From a virus (lineage: Duplodnaviria > Heunggongvirae > Uroviricota > Caudoviricetes), in IMG/VR virus record IMGVR_UViG_2671180417_000003, positions 1-8,583 of that record: 8,583 nucleotides of DNA; one strand, written 5' to 3'. Shown piece by piece: positions 195-6,763 of the stretch; within the stretch, counting starts at the first letter, position 1, and every line of letters starts with the position of its first letter. The position numbers and the translations under genes were made by a program. The notes under the pieces were generated by a model. That model did not search any database, was not told the origin of the DNA, and saw nothing but the letters and a program-made list of their open reading frames with translations.

Positions 195-220
195 TGGCCT
201 TAGTTGGTCAGATATATTGG

Positions 221-269
221 GACTCGCTTTGTCAGCGACGTAGGACGAATGTCCATTGTGAAAAGAGCG
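221..269 (-). promoter_or_regulatory. nutR-like region: boxA-like CGCTCTTTT, small hairpin GGAC-ATTC-GTCC, then conserved element TACGTCGCTGACAAAGCG
   Basis: Minus-strand reading just after the cro-like stop: CGCTCTTTT (plus 261-269) matches the lambdoid boxA core CGCTCTT; the 18-mer (plus 225-242) is 17/18 identical to an element in the N leader at 3175-3192; both can form a 4-bp stem around the loop TGACAAA. Confidence 0.45.
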
Positions 270-276
270 GTGTTAC

Positions 277-510
277 TTATGCAGCCGATGCTCTACGCGA
301 TACGAACACTAGGTTTTCCTTTTTCACAGGTTTATAACCCGTGAAATTACGAGTAGCTTCTTCGATTGCATTCGCTTTATCAGGGGAAGCTCTTCGAAAT
401 CCATATGCAATCTGGTCAAGATAGCCAACTGAAGTTTTCGCTAATGCGGCGAGTCGCTTCCATTCCTCACTAGAAGCCTCTTTTCGCCAGCGTAGTAGTT
501 CATTACTCAT
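277..510 (-). CDS. Cro-like small HTH DNA-binding regulator (77 aa)
   Basis: ORF track 277..510; SD GGAGG (plus 516-520 as CCTCC) 5 nt before ATG; HTH-like segment WKRLAALAKTSVGYLDQIAYGFRRASPDKANAIEEAT; divergent from the CI-type repressor across an operator-bearing intergenic region, the canonical cro position. Confidence 0.6.
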   Translation of the reverse strand: MSNELLRWRKEASSEEWKRLAALAKTSVGYLDQIAYGFRRASPDKANAIEEATRNFTGYKPVKKENLVFVSRRASAA

Positions 511-537
511 TAGTGCCTCCGTTTATCACACAGAACA

Positions 538-566
538 ACTTTACCATTTTGATAAATAATCCGCAA
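538..566 (-). promoter_or_regulatory. PR-like promoter for the cro-like gene: -35 TTGCGG (566..561), 17-bp spacer, -10 TAAAGT (543..538)
   Basis: Read on minus strand: TTGCGG-attatttatcaaaatgg-TAAAGT. Same -10 hexamer, same 17-bp spacing and same ATTTATCA motif inside the spacer as the PL-like promoter at 3082-3110. Confidence 0.45.
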
Positions 567-605
567 TGTAAATTTATCATATTGCGTATTTATCCATTTG
601 CTAAA
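540..605. promoter_or_regulatory. OR-like operator cluster: 17-bp dyads TTTACCattttGATAAA (540-556) and TTTATCcatttGCTAAA (589-605) plus half-site TTTATC (573-578); putative leaderless PRM (-10 GAAAAT 612-617)
   Basis: Three copies of the TTTATC/GATAAA half-site between divergent cro-like and cI-like genes; dyads have 6-bp arms and 5-bp AT-rich centre (17 bp, typical lambdoid operator size); the same dyad occurs perfectly at 3092-3108. Confidence 0.5.
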
Positions 606-623
606 TAGAGGGAAAATTGTGAG

Positions 624-1328
624 ATGGAAAACAAAGATATTCGCAAATCGAATCTGGCGTTTTTGCTAGATGAGCATAAAAAAATCGCGGGTAACACTAA
701 TGCAAGCTTTGCCGATAAGCTTGGGGTTAGCCCTTCTCAACTCACGCAAGTCTCCGGTGAAAAAAGCACTCGAAACATAGGGGATAAACTAGCAAGAAAA
801 TTTGAAGCCGCGCTTGGGTTACCTAATGGGTGGCTTGATTTGGTACATGATGTAACACCAATTGCATCATGCTCAGATTCTTTAACTTTTGTCGGTCAGG
901 TAAGAAAAGGGTTAGTGCGCGTGGTTGGTGAGGCAATTCTTGGTGTTGATGGTGCCATCGAGATGACCGAAGAGCGCGATGGGTGGCTCAAAATTTATAG
1001 CGATGATCCAGATGCCTTTGGTCTTCGTGTGAAAGGAGACAGCATGTGGCCCAGAATAAAATCAGGAGAATATGTACTCATTGAGCCTAACACCAAAGTA
1101 TTCCCGGGTGATGAGGTGTTTGTCAGAACCGTTGAAGGACACAACATGATTAAGGTTCTTGGCTATGACAGAGATGGAGAATACCAATTTACAAGCATTA
1201 ACCAGGATCACAGGCCTATAACGTTGCCTTATCATCAAGTAGCAAAGGTGGAGTATGTAGCTGGTATTCTGAAGCAATCTCGCCATCTGGATGACATCGA
1301 GGCAAGGGAGTGGCTGAAAAGTTCGTGA
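624..1328 (+). CDS. cI: CI-type prophage repressor: N-terminal HTH plus C-terminal S24 (LexA-like) peptidase domain, 234 aa
   Basis: ORF track 624..1328; HTH-like SFADKLGVSPSQLTQV; S24 catalytic dyad signature GDSMWP (Ser140) with Lys177 37 residues downstream (LexA-like spacing); divergent from cro-like gene. No Ala-Gly pair in the linker; position-equivalent is Leu106-Gly107. Confidence 0.9.
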   Translation: MENKDIRKSNLAFLLDEHKKIAGNTNASFADKLGVSPSQLTQVSGEKSTRNIGDKLARKFEAALGLPNGWLDLVHDVTPIASCSDSLTFVGQVRKGLVRVVGEAILGVDGAIEMTEERDGWLKIYSDDPDAFGLRVKGDSMWPRIKSGEYVLIEPNTKVFPGDEVFVRTVEGHNMIKVLGYDRDGEYQFTSINQDHRPITLPYHQVAKVEYVAGILKQSRHLDDIEAREWLKSS

Positions 1329-1388
1329 CTTCATCGTCACATAGCTGGTAACCAGTGGCCAGAAGAAACGTTTGGGTGAGGAGGATAG

Positions 1389-1730
1389 ATGGCGTTCACT
1401 GACCTTGAATATCAAGCGGTCAAAAAAGAAGTTCACCAATTCATTGAAAGCATAAGGCCGCCTGAACATATCCGCAATGAACTGGATATTGTTTATAGCA
1501 TCAATGACCAAACGATAGATATCGGCGAACAGCGCCCCGTGTGGCAGGGCAACCCAGGTGAAACAAACATCCTGCCATCAGCAAGAATCAAGTACATACG
1601 TTCTCTGGATAGATGGAAAATCTATTGGATGCGGAAGGATATGAAATGGCATCAGTACAGTACTGAACTTTCGCTGACTGATGCGCTTGAGCTTGTGCGT
1701 GCTGACCCGGATTGCTGCTTCTTCGGATGA
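1389..1730 (+). CDS. Hypothetical protein (113 aa), first gene after the repressor; function unrecognised
   Basis: ORF track 1389..1730; strong SD GAGGAGG (1378-1384) 4 nt before ATG; same strand as cI, 60 bp downstream; GC content similar to phage backbone; ends CCFFG. Confidence 0.7.
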   Translation: MAFTDLEYQAVKKEVHQFIESIRPPEHIRNELDIVYSINDQTIDIGEQRPVWQGNPGETNILPSARIKYIRSLDRWKIYWMRKDMKWHQYSTELSLTDALELVRADPDCCFFG

Positions 1731-1800
1731 GTGAAGAGACGTTTGGATGATGGATGATCGCAGAGATGCTCGTAGAGCATACAGCGATGCAGGAGAATTT

Positions 1801-2235
1801 ATGGCACTTAATTTAGAAAGAATATCTTTTATAACCCCATTTGATAGCAGCGAAGAACCCAACCAACCGACGCTTAATTTTACATGCAATGAATTTCCTG
1901 CGCGGCTATCAATTGATTTCAGGGTTGGTATGATCGGGTTGAAACCAAATTCAAGATATAATTTGGGTATTATGGTAATCCCCGCGCACCTAATTATAAA
2001 AAAAGGTGAGGAAATTCAATTCCCTGACGGCTCTTCGGAATCAGTTTCACTTTTCATCGATACGAAAGATAGCCATTTTGAAACAGGGGTTGGCGGACAG
2101 GTAATAGTAACATTGAAAGAAATTAGGGTCCCAGCTAAAGGGCTGTATAGTGTTATAGGGATATTGCAAGATAATGAAGACCCTAAAAATGAACTTCATA
2201 AAAATGAATCATTTTTCACCGTAGAGCTATTATGA
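1801..2235 (+). CDS. Hypothetical soluble protein (144 aa from ATG 1801; alternative start 1747 gives 162 aa); AT-rich cargo gene
   Basis: ORF track 1747..2235; preferred start ATG 1801 has SD AGGAG (1791-1795) with 5-nt spacer; stop TGA overlaps next start (ATGA at 2232-2235); AT-rich composition; no recognisable catalytic motif. Confidence 0.7.
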   Translation: MALNLERISFITPFDSSEEPNQPTLNFTCNEFPARLSIDFRVGMIGLKPNSRYNLGIMVIPAHLIIKKGEEIQFPDGSSESVSLFIDTKDSHFETGVGGQVIVTLKEIRVPAKGLYSVIGILQDNEDPKNELHKNESFFTVELL

Positions 2236-2852
2236 GTGACGACAGTAATTTAAATAATCATGGAAAGCAAGACACCAACATATCTGAAAGCCGGAGGTTG
2301 AAGGTTGTTGGCGGTTCCGATTTTGAGGCTGAATTTGATAATTCTCCCACCAAGGTGCAAAATAATTACATAAAACCGCCACAAACGGAGGAAGAAGTGG
2401 GAACGATCAGCAGAGAGGAACTTGATGCTCGCTTAGCTGCTAATAAAGCAGAGATGGAGTCTATTGCTTCTTCCATTAGGGCTGACATGGCTCTATCTCG
2501 TGAAAGCGTTAATGTCCAATTTGCATCACTTAATGCAGCCATAAGCTCTCTATCGTCCAAGATCGATGGAAAGATGGATAGCGCTGCTGGCGATATAAAA
2601 GCAATTAATGGGAGATTCGAAGGAATTCAAGGACAAATAACAGGGGTTAATACCGCAATTAGTGGTGTTCAGTCGGGTATTTCTATACGATTAGCCATTT
2701 TTAGTGTCATTATCGCTGTAATAGTTGCGATTCCCGGGCTGGTATCAGCTTTAAAGTCAGACCACGTACCTTTGCAACAGCCTTCCACTTTGCAAGCGCC
2801 GCCACAAAATACCCAGCCAACAGACAACAAAAAAATCACTCCCCAGCATTAA
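2232..2852 (+). CDS. Hypothetical single-pass membrane protein (206 aa) with long Ser/Ala/Ile/Gly-rich helical N-terminal region, one TM helix, Pro/Gln-rich C-tail
   Basis: ORF track 2232..2852; ATGA overlap with upstream gene; hydrophobic stretch IRLAIFSVIIAVIVAIPGLVSAL (about residues 152-174); C-tail KSDHVPLQQPSTLQAPPQNTQPTDNKKITPQH; AT-rich; followed directly by an intrinsic terminator. Confidence 0.75.
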   Translation: MSDDSNLNNHGKQDTNISESRRLKVVGGSDFEAEFDNSPTKVQNNYIKPPQTEEEVGTISREELDARLAANKAEMESIASSIRADMALSRESVNVQFASLNAAISSLSSKIDGKMDSAAGDIKAINGRFEGIQGQITGVNTAISGVQSGISIRLAIFSVIIAVIVAIPGLVSALKSDHVPLQQPSTLQAPPQNTQPTDNKKITPQH

Positions 2853-2858
2853 CGCATT

Positions 2859-2887
2859 AACCCGGCCTCAGCGCCGGGTTTTCTTTG
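2859..2887 (+). terminator. Rho-independent terminator closing the cI-downstream operon
   Basis: AACCCGGC-ctca gc-GCCGGGTT stem (GC-rich, 6-8 bp; 2859-2880) followed by TTTTCTTTG, 7 nt after the stop codon of the membrane-protein gene. Confidence 0.7.
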
Positions 2888-2993
2888 CCTCACGATCCCC
2901 ACACCTAAAAACACATAACCAATTGTATTTGTTGAAAAATAAATAGATACAACTTGCTAAACAACGCAATCCAGATCTCCCTCAAATCTCTTT

Positions 2994-3110
2994 ATTTATC
3001 CTGTCGAATTCCTACAACAAAATAAAACACCATAAGAATCAATACGATATTTGAAAACCAAGAGAATTTATCATTTTGCTATTGCCATTAATTTATCATT
3101 CCGATAAAGT
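2994..3110 (+). promoter_or_regulatory. PL/OL-like region: -35 TTGCCA (3082-3087), 17-bp spacer, -10 TAAAGT (3105-3110); perfect 17-bp operator dyad TTTATCattccGATAAA (3092-3108) plus upstream half-sites at 3067-3072 and 2995-3000
   Basis: Same half-site family (TTTATC/GATAAA) and same promoter hexamers/spacing as the OR/PR-like region at 538-605; shared 10-11-mers AATTTATCAT(T) at 3065-3075, 3090-3100 and 571-580, and TATTTATCC at 2993-3001 and 587-595; positioned about 250 nt upstream of the N-like gene. Confidence 0.5.
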
Positions 3111-3158
3111 TCACCCATCAGCAGGACGCACTACTCACCAGGGCGGTGAATATACAAC

Positions 3159-3193
3159 GATTCGAATATGAATCTACGGCGCTGACAAAGCGC
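3159..3193 (+). promoter_or_regulatory. nutL-like element in the N leader: hairpin GATTC-GAATAT-GAATC followed by TACGGCGCTGACAAAGCGC
   Basis: 18-mer 3175-3192 is 17/18 identical to the minus-strand element at 225-242 in the cro/cII intergenic region; stems GCGC/GCGC here versus TCGC/GCGA there (compensatory change) around identical loop TGACAAA; both are preceded by a small hairpin. Confidence 0.4.
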
Positions 3194-3358
3194 AATAACC
3201 AAAGTGAACTTTGGGGTGTGGTGAAGGGTTCATGGACGGGAATATGTCGCACGTAAAGCGGCGAGGCCTGCGGGACTATTGCCGAATTGAAGTAGGCCGA
3301 AACAGGTCGAAATGGGTCTCCCACCTACCACACCACCAAAGTTCATCAGGAGGTCTAT

Positions 3359-3742
3359 ATGACACGCAGAACTCAGTTCAAAGGCAATTCACGTTCTCGT
3401 CGTCGTGAGCGTTTAAAGGTAAAGGCATTAGCTAACGGCGTACTGGCCCGCGAAGAAGCAATAAGTTCAGAAGTATTACACCGCCCTACTCTAAGCAGAG
3501 CGCAGATTCAGGCTAAAGGTACTCACGAAACGCCTGAGCGCATAGAAGACGCTAAGCCAATTAAGTTCATGGCACAGGACGTGATCTGGCAACAGAAAGA
3601 ATACAGACGCAATCTGGAGCGAGCGGCCATTGTGTACGCGAATGAGTTTGGACATAAGCAACCAGAAACTGGTGTATGTCTTCCAAACGTAGCTCTTTAC
3701 GCGGCAGGCTACCGGAAATCAAAACAACTGACAGCAAGATGA
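3359..3742 (+). CDS. N: N-type transcription antiterminator (127 aa), Stx-phage/933W-like by recollection, with N-terminal arginine-rich motif
   Basis: ORF track 3359..3742; SD AGGAGG (3348-3353) 5 nt before ATG; N-terminus MTRRTQFKGNSRSRRRERLKVKALANG is a classic arginine-rich RNA-binding motif; first gene after the PL-like promoter and long structured leader. Confidence 0.75.
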   Translation: MTRRTQFKGNSRSRRRERLKVKALANGVLAREEAISSEVLHRPTLSRAQIQAKGTHETPERIEDAKPIKFMAQDVIWQQKEYRRNLERAAIVYANEFGHKQPETGVCLPNVALYAAGYRKSKQLTAR

Positions 3743-3803
3743 CTTGTGTTGGTCGCCAGAAAATGAAATTAGGCAGCAAACCACTTATTTGAGAGGAATT
3801 AAT

Positions 3804-4427
3804 ATGTCATCAATCCGCTTAACTACGAGAATGAAAGAGGAAATCGCTCGTAACGCTTTAATTAAGTCCGGGGTGTTCACTGAACTTGAAGAAGTAACAA
3901 AGTTAAAGAACCAGCTTGCACTTGACGCCAGAGTTATTGCGTTTGGCGGTAAAAAGAAAACTGAGGAAGTGGATCAGCTATCATCCAAGTTGGTAGCTAT
4001 AAGTGAAGAACTTGGAAAGATGGGATGTTCATTTTACTCATACGATGTTAGTTCTACTTCAATTTATCTGACTGTATCTGGCAGAAGGGTTGGATGGCAT
4101 TCATATGGGAAAGACGGCAACGGCAAAGATATATTGCTCCCTACTCCGATCAAAGATAAATGCATGTTTGACGCAGAACACGAAATAACAAAAAGGTTTG
4201 ATGAAATCTGCGCATTGCAACAAAAACTTGAAGCCAAGAAAAAGGATATCGAATCAAATGTATGGGCTGCTTTGAACTCAGTCACAACAGTTAAGCGACT
4301 TATTGAAGTTTGGCCTGAAAGCAAAGAATTGCTACCAAAAGAAGCAGATAAAGCAAGTACAGCACTTCCTGCTTTACGGGTAGAAGATTTGAATAAGATG
4401 ATTGGACTTCCTTCCGAGGCCGCATAG
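3804..4427 (+). CDS. Hypothetical protein (208 aa from ATG 3804), AT-rich accessory gene in the N-to-cIII slot
   Basis: ORF track 3744..4427 uses a TTG start; ATG 3804 preferred because of SD GAGAGGA (3791-3797) with 6-nt spacer; hydrophilic, Lys/Glu-rich with predicted coiled-coil-like segments; stop lies inside a terminator hairpin. Confidence 0.7.
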   Translation: MSSIRLTTRMKEEIARNALIKSGVFTELEEVTKLKNQLALDARVIAFGGKKKTEEVDQLSSKLVAISEELGKMGCSFYSYDVSSTSIYLTVSGRRVGWHSYGKDGNGKDILLPTPIKDKCMFDAEHEITKRFDEICALQQKLEAKKKDIESNVWAALNSVTTVKRLIEVWPESKELLPKEADKASTALPALRVEDLNKMIGLPSEAA

Positions 4428-4442
4428 TCGGCCTTTATTTTT
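4417..4442 (+). terminator. Rho-independent terminator (tL1-like) immediately after the 3804-4427 gene
   Basis: AGGCCG-catagt-CGGCCT 6-bp stem (4417-4434) followed by TTATTTTT (4435-4442); stop codon TAG sits in the loop. Confidence 0.65.
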
Positions 4443-4471
4443 GGCATAAACAACAGAATAAATACTGCACT

Positions 4472-4499
4472 GTGTATTCATTCCAACGAGTGAATACAC
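4472..4499. repeat. Perfect 9-bp inverted repeat GTGTATTCA-N10-TGAATACAC
   Basis: Seen directly at 4472-4480 and 4491-4499; no T-tract after it, so more likely a protein-binding dyad or RNA processing structure than a terminator. Confidence 0.4.
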
Positions 4500-4561
4500 G
4501 GAGCAATGTCGCTCGTAACTAAACAGGAGCCGACTTGTTCTGATTATTGGAAATCTTCTTT

Positions 4562-4586
4562 GCCCTCCAGTGTGAGGGCCTTTTTA
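4562..4586 (+). terminator. Rho-independent terminator (tL2-like) upstream of cIII
   Basis: GCCCTC-cagtgt-GAGGGC stem (4562-4579) followed by CTTTTTA; a second weaker hairpin AACGC-N10-GCGTT plus TTTTCG follows at about 4600-4623. Confidence 0.6.
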
Positions 4587-4648
4587 TATGCATACCAATA
4601 ACGCTTCACTCGAGGCGTTTTTCGTTATGTATAAATAAGGAGCACACC

Positions 4649-4813
4649 ATGCAATATGCCATTGCAGGGTGGCCTGTTGCTGGCTGCCCTTCCGAATCTT
4701 TACTTGAACGAATCACCCGTAAATTACGTGACGGATGGAAACGCCTTATCGACATACTTAATCAGCCAGGAGTCCCAAAGAATGGATCAAACACTTATGG
4801 CTATCCAGACTAA
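4649..4813 (+). CDS. cIII: CIII (54 aa), FtsH inhibitor that stabilises CII
   Basis: Translation [54 protein letters not shown] matches lambda CIII as I recall it; SD TAAGGAG (4636-4642) 6 nt before ATG 4649; the ORF-track entry 4547..4813 is an artefactual N-terminal extension through the terminator. Confidence 0.85.
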   Translation: MQYAIAGWPVAGCPSESLLERITRKLRDGWKRLIDILNQPGVPKNGSNTYGYPD

Positions 4814-4925
4814 ATTCACTATCGCCACTTTTATTGGCGATGAAAAGATGTTTCGTGAAGCCGTCGACGCTTATAAAAAATGGATATTAATACTGAAACT
4901 GAGATCAAGCAAAAGCATTCACTAA
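4782..4925 (+). CDS. kil: Kil (47 aa), host cell-division inhibitor
   Basis: [47 protein letters not shown] matches lambda Kil from memory; 32-nt overlap with cIII and 46-nt overlap with the gam long-form start, as in lambda; ORF-track 4656..4925 is an upstream extension. Confidence 0.75.
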
Positions 4926-4998
4926 CCCCTTTCCTGTTTTCCTAATCAGCCCGGCATTTCGCGGGCGATATTTTCACAGCTATTTCAGGAGTTCGGCC

Positions 4999-5295
4999 AT
5001 GAACGCTTATTACATTCAGGATCGTCTTGAGGCTCAGAGCTGGGCGCGTCACTACCAGCAGATAGCCCGTGAAGAGAAAGAGGCAGAACTGGCAGACGAC
5101 ATGGAAAAAGGCCTGCCCCAGCACCTGTTTGAATCGCTATGCATCGGTCATTTGCAACGCCACGGGGCCAGCAAAAAAGCCATTACCCGTGCGTTTGATG
5201 ACGATGTTGAGTTTCAGGAGCGCATGGCAGAACACATCCGGTACATGGTTGAAACCATTGCTCACCATCAGGTTGATATTGATTCAGAGGTATAA
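4999..5295 (+). CDS. gam: Gam, short form (98 aa), RecBCD inhibitor
   Basis: ORF track 4999..5295; near-identical to lambda Gam C-terminal 98 residues from memory; SD AGGAG (4987-4991). The upstream long-form start (ATG 4880) is in a different frame here, see findings. Confidence 0.9.
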
Positions 5296-5300
5296 AACGG

Positions 5301-6086
5301 ATGAGTACAGCACTCGCAACGCTGGCAGGGAAGCTGGCTGAACGTGTCGGCATGGATTCTGTCGACCCACAGGAACTGATCACCACTCTTCGCCAGACGG
5401 CATTTAAAGGCGATGCCAGCGATGCGCAGTTCATCGCATTGTTGATCGTCGCCAACCAGTACGGCCTTAATCCGTGGATGAAAGAAATTTACGCCTTCCC
5501 TGATAAGCAGAACGGCATCGTTCCGGTGGTGGGCGTTGATGGCTGGTCCCGCATCATCAATGAAAACCAGCATTTTGATGGCATGGACTTTGAGCAGGAC
5601 AATGAATCCTGTACATGCCGGATTTACCGCAAGGACCGTAATCATCCGATCTGCGTTACCGAATGGATGGATGAATGCCGCCGCGAACCATTCAAAACCC
5701 GCGAAGGCAGAGAAATCACGGGGCCGTGGCAGTCGCATCCTAAACGGATGTTACGGCATAAAGCTATGATTCAGTGTGCCCGTCTGGCCTTCGGATTTGC
5801 TGGTATCTATGACAAGGATGAAGCCGAGCGCATTGTCGAAAATACTGCATACACTGCAGAACGCCAGCCGGAACGCGACATCACTCCGGTTAACGATGAA
5901 ACCATGCAGGAGATTAACACTCTGCTAATCGCCCTGGATAAAACATGGGATGACGACTTATTGCCGCTCTGTTCCCAGATATTTCGCCGCGACATTCGCG
6001 CATCGTCAGAACTGACACAGGCCGAAGCAGTGAAAGCTCTTGGATTCCTGAAACAGAAAGCCACTGAGCAGAAGGTGGCAGCATGA
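5301..6086 (+). CDS. bet: Bet (Red-beta) single-strand annealing recombinase, 261 aa
   Basis: ORF track 5301..6086; sequence [88 protein letters not shown]... recognised as lambda Bet; followed by exo with ATGA overlap. Confidence 0.95.
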
Positions 6087-6763
6087 CACCGGACATTATC
6101 CTGCAGCGTACCGGGATCGACGTGAGAGCTGTCGAACAGGGGGATGATGCATGGCACAAATTACGGCTCGGCGTCATCACCGCTTCAGAAGTTCACAACG
6201 TGATAGCAAAGCCCCGCTCAGGAAAGAAGTGGCCTGACATGAAAATGTCCTACTTCCACACCCTGCTGGCTGAGGTTTGCACCGGTGTGGCTCCGGAAGT
6301 TAATGCTAAGGCGCTGGCCTGGGGAAAACAGTACGAGAACGACGCCAGAACCCTGTTTGAATTCACTTCCGGCGTGAATGTTACTGAATCCCCGATCATC
6401 TATCGCGACGAAAGTATGCGCACCGCCTGCTCTCCCGATGGTTTATGCAGTGACGGCAACGGCCTTGAGCTGAAATGCCCGTTTACCTCCCGGGATTTCA
6501 TGAAATTCCGGCTCGGTGGTTTCGAGGCCATAAAGTCGGCTTACATGGCCCAGGTGCAGTACAGCATGTGGGTGACGCGAAAAGATGCCTGGTACTTTGC
6601 CAACTATGACCCACGAATGAAGCGTGAAGGCCTGCATTATGTCGTGGTTGAGCGGGATGAAAATTACATGGCGAGTTTTGACGAGATGGTGCCGGAGTTC
6701 ATCGAAAAAATGGACGAGGCACTGGCTGAAATTGGTTTTGTATTTGGGGAGCAATGGCGATGA
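6083..6763 (+). CDS. exo: Exo (lambda exonuclease, Red-alpha), 226 aa
   Basis: ORF track 6083..6763; [69 protein letters not shown]... recognised as lambda Exo; ATGA start overlap with bet stop. Confidence 0.95.

Follow-up and report, generated by a model that had tools for sequence, protein, structure and literature searches.

The right operator of phage lambda comprises three sites, OR1, OR2 and OR3, together with the promoter PR and the leaderless promoter PRM. The centres of its sites are 24 and 23 bp apart, and lambda cI bound at OR2 activates PRM from approximately 42–43 bp upstream of the start. Closer to the locus studied here are the Shiga-toxin phage H-19B and phage 933W. The immunity region of H-19B was reportedly described by Neely and Friedman in 1998 and by Shi and Friedman in 2001, and the repressor and operators of 933W are said to have been treated in 2004 by Koudelka and colleagues and by Tyler and colleagues. 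In the passages of a review that cite Shi & Friedman 2001, the right operator of H-19B is given four sites, and its operator and early-promoter regions are referred to as already studied experimentally; review text on 933W lists three OR and two OL sites.

The window, i.e., the whole 8583-bp stretch of DNA analysed here, comes from a lambdoid prophage, of which it holds the immunity and early-left region (Table 1). An S24-type repressor gene and a cro-like gene diverge around a spacer of 113 bp, where a lambdoid switch requires about 100 bp. At least three related imperfect dyads are found inside it (522-538, 540-556, 589-605 and the degenerate 573-589), and the operator consensus recurs at PL, upstream of an N-like antiterminator gene. 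Taken as a whole, the spacer is almost certainly best explained as the OR/PR/PRM segment of a lambdoid prophage whose immunity type is that of H-19B. The repressor matches Pfam Peptidase_S24 (E 4e-16) and the PHROG family phrog_4, transcriptional repressor; no Pfam HTH family was found for its N-terminal domain at E < 0.01, and a sequence search against solved structures in the PDB returned spurious weak pseudoazurin matches only, with no repressor and no lambda cI among them. The cro-like product belongs to PHROG phrog_35, transcriptional repressor (E 4e-7), with no Pfam family at E < 0.01. The equivalent gene is labelled cro in the records of BP-4795 and ST2-8624, and a GGAG-type motif occupies the place equivalent to its Shine–Dalgarno (SD) sequence in relatives.

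Table 1. Features of the window; the column GQ499358 gives the repressor-binding sites annotated in that record, converted to window coordinates.
Feature	Position	Strand	Sequence or elements	GQ499358	Remarks
cro-like gene (77 aa)	277-510	-			From the ORF list; first gene of the PR transcript
cI–cro spacer	511-623				113 bp
cro Shine–Dalgarno	516-520	-	GGAGG		Read from the sequence
OR0 (fourth operator)	522-538		TTTATC ACACA GAACAA = TTTATCACACAGAACAA	OR0 522-538	2 mismatches; "OR0 repressor binding site" in GQ499358
PR	538-566	-	-35 TTGCGG (566-561), 17-bp spacer, -10 TAAAGT (543-538)
OR1	540-556		TTTACCATTTTGATAAA (TTTACC ATTTT GATAAA), read from the sequence	OR1 540-556	1-mismatch dyad; reads TTTATCAAAATGGTAAA in the PR direction; overlaps PR spacer and -10
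OR2, annotated	565-581		AATGTAAATTTATCATA	OR2 565-581	4/12 versus dyad consensus
OR2, proposed	573-589		TTTATC ATATT GCGTAT		Conserved degenerate site; centre at -43 from the cI ATG
OR3	589-605		TTTATCCATTTGCTAAA (TTTATC CATTT GCTAAA), read from the sequence	OR3 589-605	1-mismatch dyad; overlaps -35 and spacer of candidate PRM
PRM, candidate	589-617	+	-35 TTTATC (589-594), 17-bp spacer, -10 GAAAAT (612-617)
cI repressor gene (234 aa)	624-1328	+			HTH-type N-terminal domain and S24 self-cleaving C-terminal domain
Cargo ORFs, three	1389-2852	+			Between cI and terminator
Intrinsic terminator of the cI/cargo (PRM) operon	2859-2880	+	8-bp stem, 6 GC pairs, T run		Terminator scan; upstream of OL
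OL3	3035-3051		AGAATC AATAC GATATT = AGAATCAATACGATATT	OL3 3035-3051	Putative site annotated in GenBank; weak, 7/12 versus consensus
OL2	3067-3083		TTTATC ATTTT GCTATT	OL2 3067-3083	3 mismatches; abuts PL -35 with a 2-bp overlap
PL	3082-3110	+	TTGCCA, 17-bp spacer, TAAAGT		9/12 in the promoter scan; upstream of N
OL1	3092-3108		TTTATC ATTCC GATAAA	OL1 3092-3108	Perfect dyad over PL spacer and -10; 0.002 expected per window
N antiterminator gene	3359-3742				Pfam N_peptide; downstream of PL
bet/exo, lambda-type	5301-6763				Further along the window

In its immunity genes and operators, the window agrees closely with H-19B. All 234 residues of cI are the same as in AAD04644, the H-19B protein translated from AF034975, Cro differs by one amino acid, and 112 of the 113 spacer bases are shared, the sole difference (position 558, A here and C in H-19B) falling between OR1 and the PR -35, outside every operator. 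The OL region (2860-3218) is 100% identical, so that the repressor and the operators at both OR and OL are those of H-19B, and the fourth site, OR0, is present between PR and cro. Window positions 200-1400 are 99% identical to BP-4795, ST2-8624, AU5Stx1 and many Stx1a- and Stx2a-converting phages, and a search of 5426 complete E. coli genomes found the H-19B-type OR sequence in 216 of them (≈4%). In the ST2-8624 record GQ499358 ("immunity region; similar to bacteriophage H19-B"), seven sites are marked as repressor-binding, and KU238070 annotates oR1–oR3 in a register shifted by 2–3 bp relative to GQ499358. A literature search by sequence with the exact operator 17-mers found no match. The operators of BAA2326 (O104:H4) were also considered and rejected as a match, being of a different immunity type (ATAACTGTGCGTAATG and similar).

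The element is thus already known: it is the H-19B immunity type, annotated in public records. A preliminary description of this DNA had assigned the immunity specificity of the prophage to this region, and it is indeed set by this cI/operator region, but the specificity is the known imm-H-19B and not a new one. Because this immunity type is so well known, recognising the set here adds no new biology. Its relevance is that the cI/operator set decides the immunity range of the lysogen and the ease of prophage induction, which in Stx phages governs toxin release.

Both 17-bp dyads proposed in that description, at 540-556 and 589-605, are exact to the base and correspond to the annotated OR1 and OR3. 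The underlying motif also held up in a search of the 8583-bp window: TTTATC-N5-GATAAA with at most one mismatch gave three matches, starting at 540, 589 and 3092, against a chance expectation of 0.037, as estimated from first-order Markov simulations; not one of the 3000 runs yielded three. All three strong dyads are confined to two regulatory spacers, the one between cI and cro and the one upstream of N. When up to three mismatches are allowed, the window contains 11 matches compared with a shuffle mean of 5.4. It is confirmed that the dyads are real and far above chance. Two other candidates were discarded. Positions 556-572 could be read as an extra tiled site (8/12), but its columns are unconserved beyond the PR -35, and AT-rich DNA readily yields matches of this quality. 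A two-mismatch dyad at 4434-4450 (TTTATTTTTGGCATAAA), just downstream of the ORF at 3744-4427, was judged a chance match and is probably not an operator, because about half a site of this kind (0.54) is expected per window by chance.

The early account had been confined to OR and had overlooked the operator copies at OL, both the perfect dyad OL1 and OL2. OL3 lies 32 bp from OL2, a distance that resembles the 33-bp spacing proposed below between OR1 and OR2. At OR itself, the suggestion that the region reproduces the OR1/OR2/OR3 logic of lambda stands insofar as this is an OR region; its three-site form does not, as the OR of H-19B has four sites, OR0 had been missed and the spacing is unlike that of lambda. 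OR0, just outside the range that the preliminary description had given, lies between the PR -10 and the SD of cro, where transcription from PR would start. It is limited to the H-19B group and is not present in non-H-19B relatives.

The register of the sites was examined across 94 loci, which represent 50 distinct upstream sequences and 32 distinct cI N-terminal domains (49–100% identity). They include Klebsiella phage KO-TP1, whose cI N-terminal domain is 51% identical (tblastn), 12 genome loci (Pantoea, Phytobacter, Enterobacter, Atlantibacter, Citrobacter and Biostraticola) and 80 IMG/VR loci. Counted from the cI ATG, the layout is fixed in all relatives, with the OR1 dyad starting at -84/-83, a degenerate site at -51 and the OR3 dyad at -35. 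Most relatives carry TTTAGC/GCTAAA half-sites and several lineages, H-19B included, carry TTTATC/GATAAA, while the left half of OR3 is TTTATC in every sequence compared. In every sequence, the base at position 5 of the -51 site tracks the type of OR1: 25 sequences have G in both, and 25 are T-type. Such a conserved layout supports PR, the predicted leaderless PRM and the site at 573-589.

This last site is the one on which our reading departs from the public annotation. The half-site TTTATC had been noticed at 573-578, where it is indeed found; it does not stand alone but is the left half of a 17-bp degenerate site, 573-589, that starts at -51 in all 50 distinct related sequences. This site matches 8 of 12 consensus positions, with a perfect left half and a right half that retains G12, A16 and T17. 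The frame disagrees with both OR2 registers in GenBank (565-581 in GQ499358 and 568-584 in KU238070). Since the annotated 565-581 is a weak match to the consensus, and since its columns outside 573-589 (-59 to -52 in the 50 sequences) are unconserved except for three that form the PR -35, 573-589 is favoured as OR2. We tentatively propose that the functional OR2 of imm-H-19B, and of a wider set of enterobacterial prophages, is 573-589, sharing one base pair with OR3 and centred at -43 of a leaderless PRM that would use the OR3 TTTATC as its -35, a combination that we regard as possible and somewhat short of probable. In this register, the OR2 and OR3 centres are 16 bp apart, with one shared base pair and roughly opposite helix faces. 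If this is true, the 33 + 16 bp geometry might make the occupancies of OR2 and OR3 interdependent and so bear on two traits described for Stx prophages, namely easy induction and low levels of repressor.

Alternatively, OR2 is the 565-581 of the GenBank record and TTTATC at 573-578 is merely part of that site. We consider this rather doubtful, although it has several attractions. It would give an even, lambda-like spacing, with 25 and 24 bp between centres, mirror the 25-bp distance between OL1 and OL2, and share 2 bp with the PR -35, just as OL2 does with the PL -35; moreover, OR2 is placed in or near this register by both public records, and the annotation may stem from the footprints of Shi & Friedman 2001. 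Nevertheless, its consensus match is half that of 573-589, the conserved frame starts at -51 with its position 5 covarying with OR1, the columns from -59 to -52 are kept only at the three PR -35 positions, and natural variants occur at 569, inside the annotated site.

The same alignment bears on the promoter of cI. A weak leaderless PRM with GAAAAT (612-617) as its -10 had been guessed at before, and the guess gains support from conservation: a hexamer xAxxAT is found at -12 to -7 from the ATG, with A2 and T6 invariant in the 50 distinct sequences and the neighbouring columns variable. GAAAAT ends six bases before the cI ATG (624), and a natural variant, 614 A>G, turns it into GAGAAT, the commonest -10 form in relatives. 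A leaderless PRM with a predicted start at or near A624 of the cI ATG is thus well supported by the comparison. It is unlikely that cI is instead translated from a leadered transcript through the SD-like AGAGGG at 607-612, with PRM further upstream and not at GAAAAT. KU238070 does mark the equivalent of 607-612 as the cI ribosome-binding site, a GAGG motif precedes the ATG by 11 nt, and AGAGGG would be left out of a leaderless PRM transcript. Yet AGAGGG is unconserved in relatives, whereas xAxxAT keeps A2 and T6 throughout; the promoter scan found no convincing plus-strand promoter upstream of cI; and an SD-to-ATG spacing of 11 nt exceeds the optimum. AGAGGG could serve PRE-type read-through transcripts, as in lambda.

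As for PR, the promoter elements previously read on the minus strand over OR1 are exact, and they are supported by the parallel with PL and by a register conserved in the 50 distinct related sequences. PR is built as TTGCGG-ATTA-TTTATCAAAATGGTAAAGT and PL as TTGCCA-TTAA-TTTATCATTCCGATAAAGT, and the two registers match base for base. The arrangement of TTGCnn, 4 bp and an operator ending in TAAA(C/G)T is kept in 14 loci from 8 genera, as well as in the 50 distinct sequences. Both by sequence and by conservation in this set, then, the operators overlap PR and the conserved candidate PRM. PR agrees with the sigma-70 consensus at 7/12 positions and escaped the promoter scan, whose sole promoter-like site between 450 and 700 is a minus-strand TTAGCA-17-TATGAT (604-576) scoring 9/12. 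If the latter were the true rightward early promoter, its -35 and -10 would be covered by OR3 and OR2, respectively, leaving OR1 and OR0 as roadblocks downstream. We find this very improbable in spite of the better score. Its hexamers are operator half-sites (TTTAGC, and GATAAA on the other strand), so a match of this kind is a by-product to be expected. TATGAT, the -10, is conserved neither in relatives (ATTGCT in KO-TP1) nor among H-19B-group variants, where ATAT at 579-582 is replaced by AAAA, whereas TTGCnn-17-TAAAnT is kept in every locus and has its exact counterpart in PL. The site at 576-604 was rejected as PR for want of conservation and is probably fortuitous. The possibility that the dyads do not bind repressor at all, and are either promoter elements or AT-rich repeats that arose by chance, can be dismissed, for although the cI–cro spacer is richer in AT than the window (68% versus 54%), the excess over expectation and the confinement to two regulatory spacers described above, the conservation and covariation of the dyads across genera, the match to the experimentally studied H-19B operator region and the specific repressor binding reportedly described in literature that the review passages cite all speak against it.

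Natural variation within the immunity type points to the same elements. The 34 loci with the same cI 5′ end resolve into 13 OR variants that differ at 11 positions (529, 536, 557, 558, 560, 561, 562, 569, 582, 585 and 614). OR1, OR3, the half-site 573-578 and the left half of OR0, 46 protected positions in all, are free of them (hypergeometric P = 0.002). Variants cluster at 557, 558, 560, 561 and 562, which belong either to the -35 of PR or to the 4 bp that separate it from OR1, and the flanking operators are invariant. Through this polymorphism, prophages that are otherwise homoimmune may differ in the strength of PR.

By analogy, we infer for this switch an order of occupancy, activation from OR2, a leaderless start and a role for Cro. 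A cI dimer would bind the 17-bp imperfect dyads of consensus TTTATC-N5-GATAAA. Occupation of OR1, over the PR spacer and -10, and of OR0, over the PR start region, would block transcription of cro and of the early genes that follow it. From the weak OR2, approximately 43 bp upstream of the cI ATG, a bound dimer may stimulate PRM as lambda cI does from its own OR2, and binding at OR3, over the -35-like TTTATC and the spacer of PRM, would switch off cI production once repressor concentrations are high. Cro would presumably use the same operator sites, and RecA-stimulated self-cleavage of the S24 domain would lead to prophage induction.

The ORF directly 3′ of cI (1389-1730, plus strand) encodes a DUF3024 protein (Pfam E 2e-31) that also matches PDC-S43, a candidate defence family of PADLOC (E 7e-42). 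This ORF occupies a rexAB-like slot, from which it would be co-transcribed with cI in lysogens, and it is absent from that place in H-19B. The two cargo ORFs that follow at 1747-2852, also on the plus strand, encode proteins of 162 and 206 aa, neither with a convincing Pfam or PADLOC family. Phages HK542 and HK244 carry the 1747-2852 segment at 99% identity in their own immunity regions, downstream of cI genes that differ from this one, a distribution that indicates cargo carried on a mobile cassette.

What may go beyond the existing annotation is one point, namely the frame of OR2 together with a geometry, predicted leaderless PRM included, that the family keeps throughout, as judged from aligned sequences. 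The residual value of the locus lies here, in a predicted leaderless PRM and an OR2 register unlike the annotated one, both drawn from cross-genus conservation and relevant for modelling or engineering the switch.

Compared with lambda, the locus shares divergent cI and cro genes, 17-bp imperfect dyads that recur at OL, an OR1 on the PR -10 and spacer, a middle site approximately 42–43 bp upstream of a weak promoter (here a candidate) that starts at the cI ATG, a promoter-proximal site that overlaps PRM and a repressor with an S24 self-cleavage domain. It differs in its recognition sequence, TTTATC-N5-GATAAA instead of the TATCACCGC type, and in having four OR sites instead of three. The centres are 18, 33 and 16 bp apart if 573-589 is taken as OR2 (OR2 and OR3 then sharing a base pair), compared with the 24 and 23 bp of lambda. 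OR3 lies on the PRM -10 in lambda and on the -35 of the candidate PRM here, and the cI N-terminal domain has no detectable sequence similarity to that of lambda.

The likeness to 933W is of another kind. Residues 81-234 of cI, its C-terminal 154, are 95% identical to those of the 933W repressor, and the N family and early-region layout are the same, but the N-terminal DNA-binding domain is unrelated and cannot be aligned, and the 933W operators (oR1–oR3) are 15-bp sites of another sequence. The combination of a shared C-terminal and an unrelated N-terminal domain was noted by Smith et al. 2012 (PMC3430580). Since the C-terminal domain is so similar, oligomerisation and RecA-stimulated cleavage are probably common to both; since the N-terminal domain and the operators differ, 933W is expected to be heteroimmune with the H-19B type. 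It is reasonable to place immunity specificity in the exchanged N-terminal domain and operators, because the C-terminal domain is shared and the N-terminal one unrelated. The repressor is modular, with a junction near codons 81-95, which implies recombination inside cI that swaps specificity and retains the cleavage and oligomerisation domain.

In KO-TP1 and in prophages of Pantoea, Enterobacter, Citrobacter and other enterobacteria, the cI N-terminal domain is 49–65% identical and the OR layout is the same base for base; these relatives lack OR0 and mostly use TTTAGC-N5-GCTAAA, with G instead of T at position 5. H-19B remains the closest system, as set out above for cI, Cro, OR and OL. It differs from the window in having none of its cargo genes (1380-2859) and in carrying erf where the window has bet/exo. 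Along 3744-6763 the mosaic breakpoints of the two differ, and only short patches (4467-4651) align, whereas N and OL are common to both.
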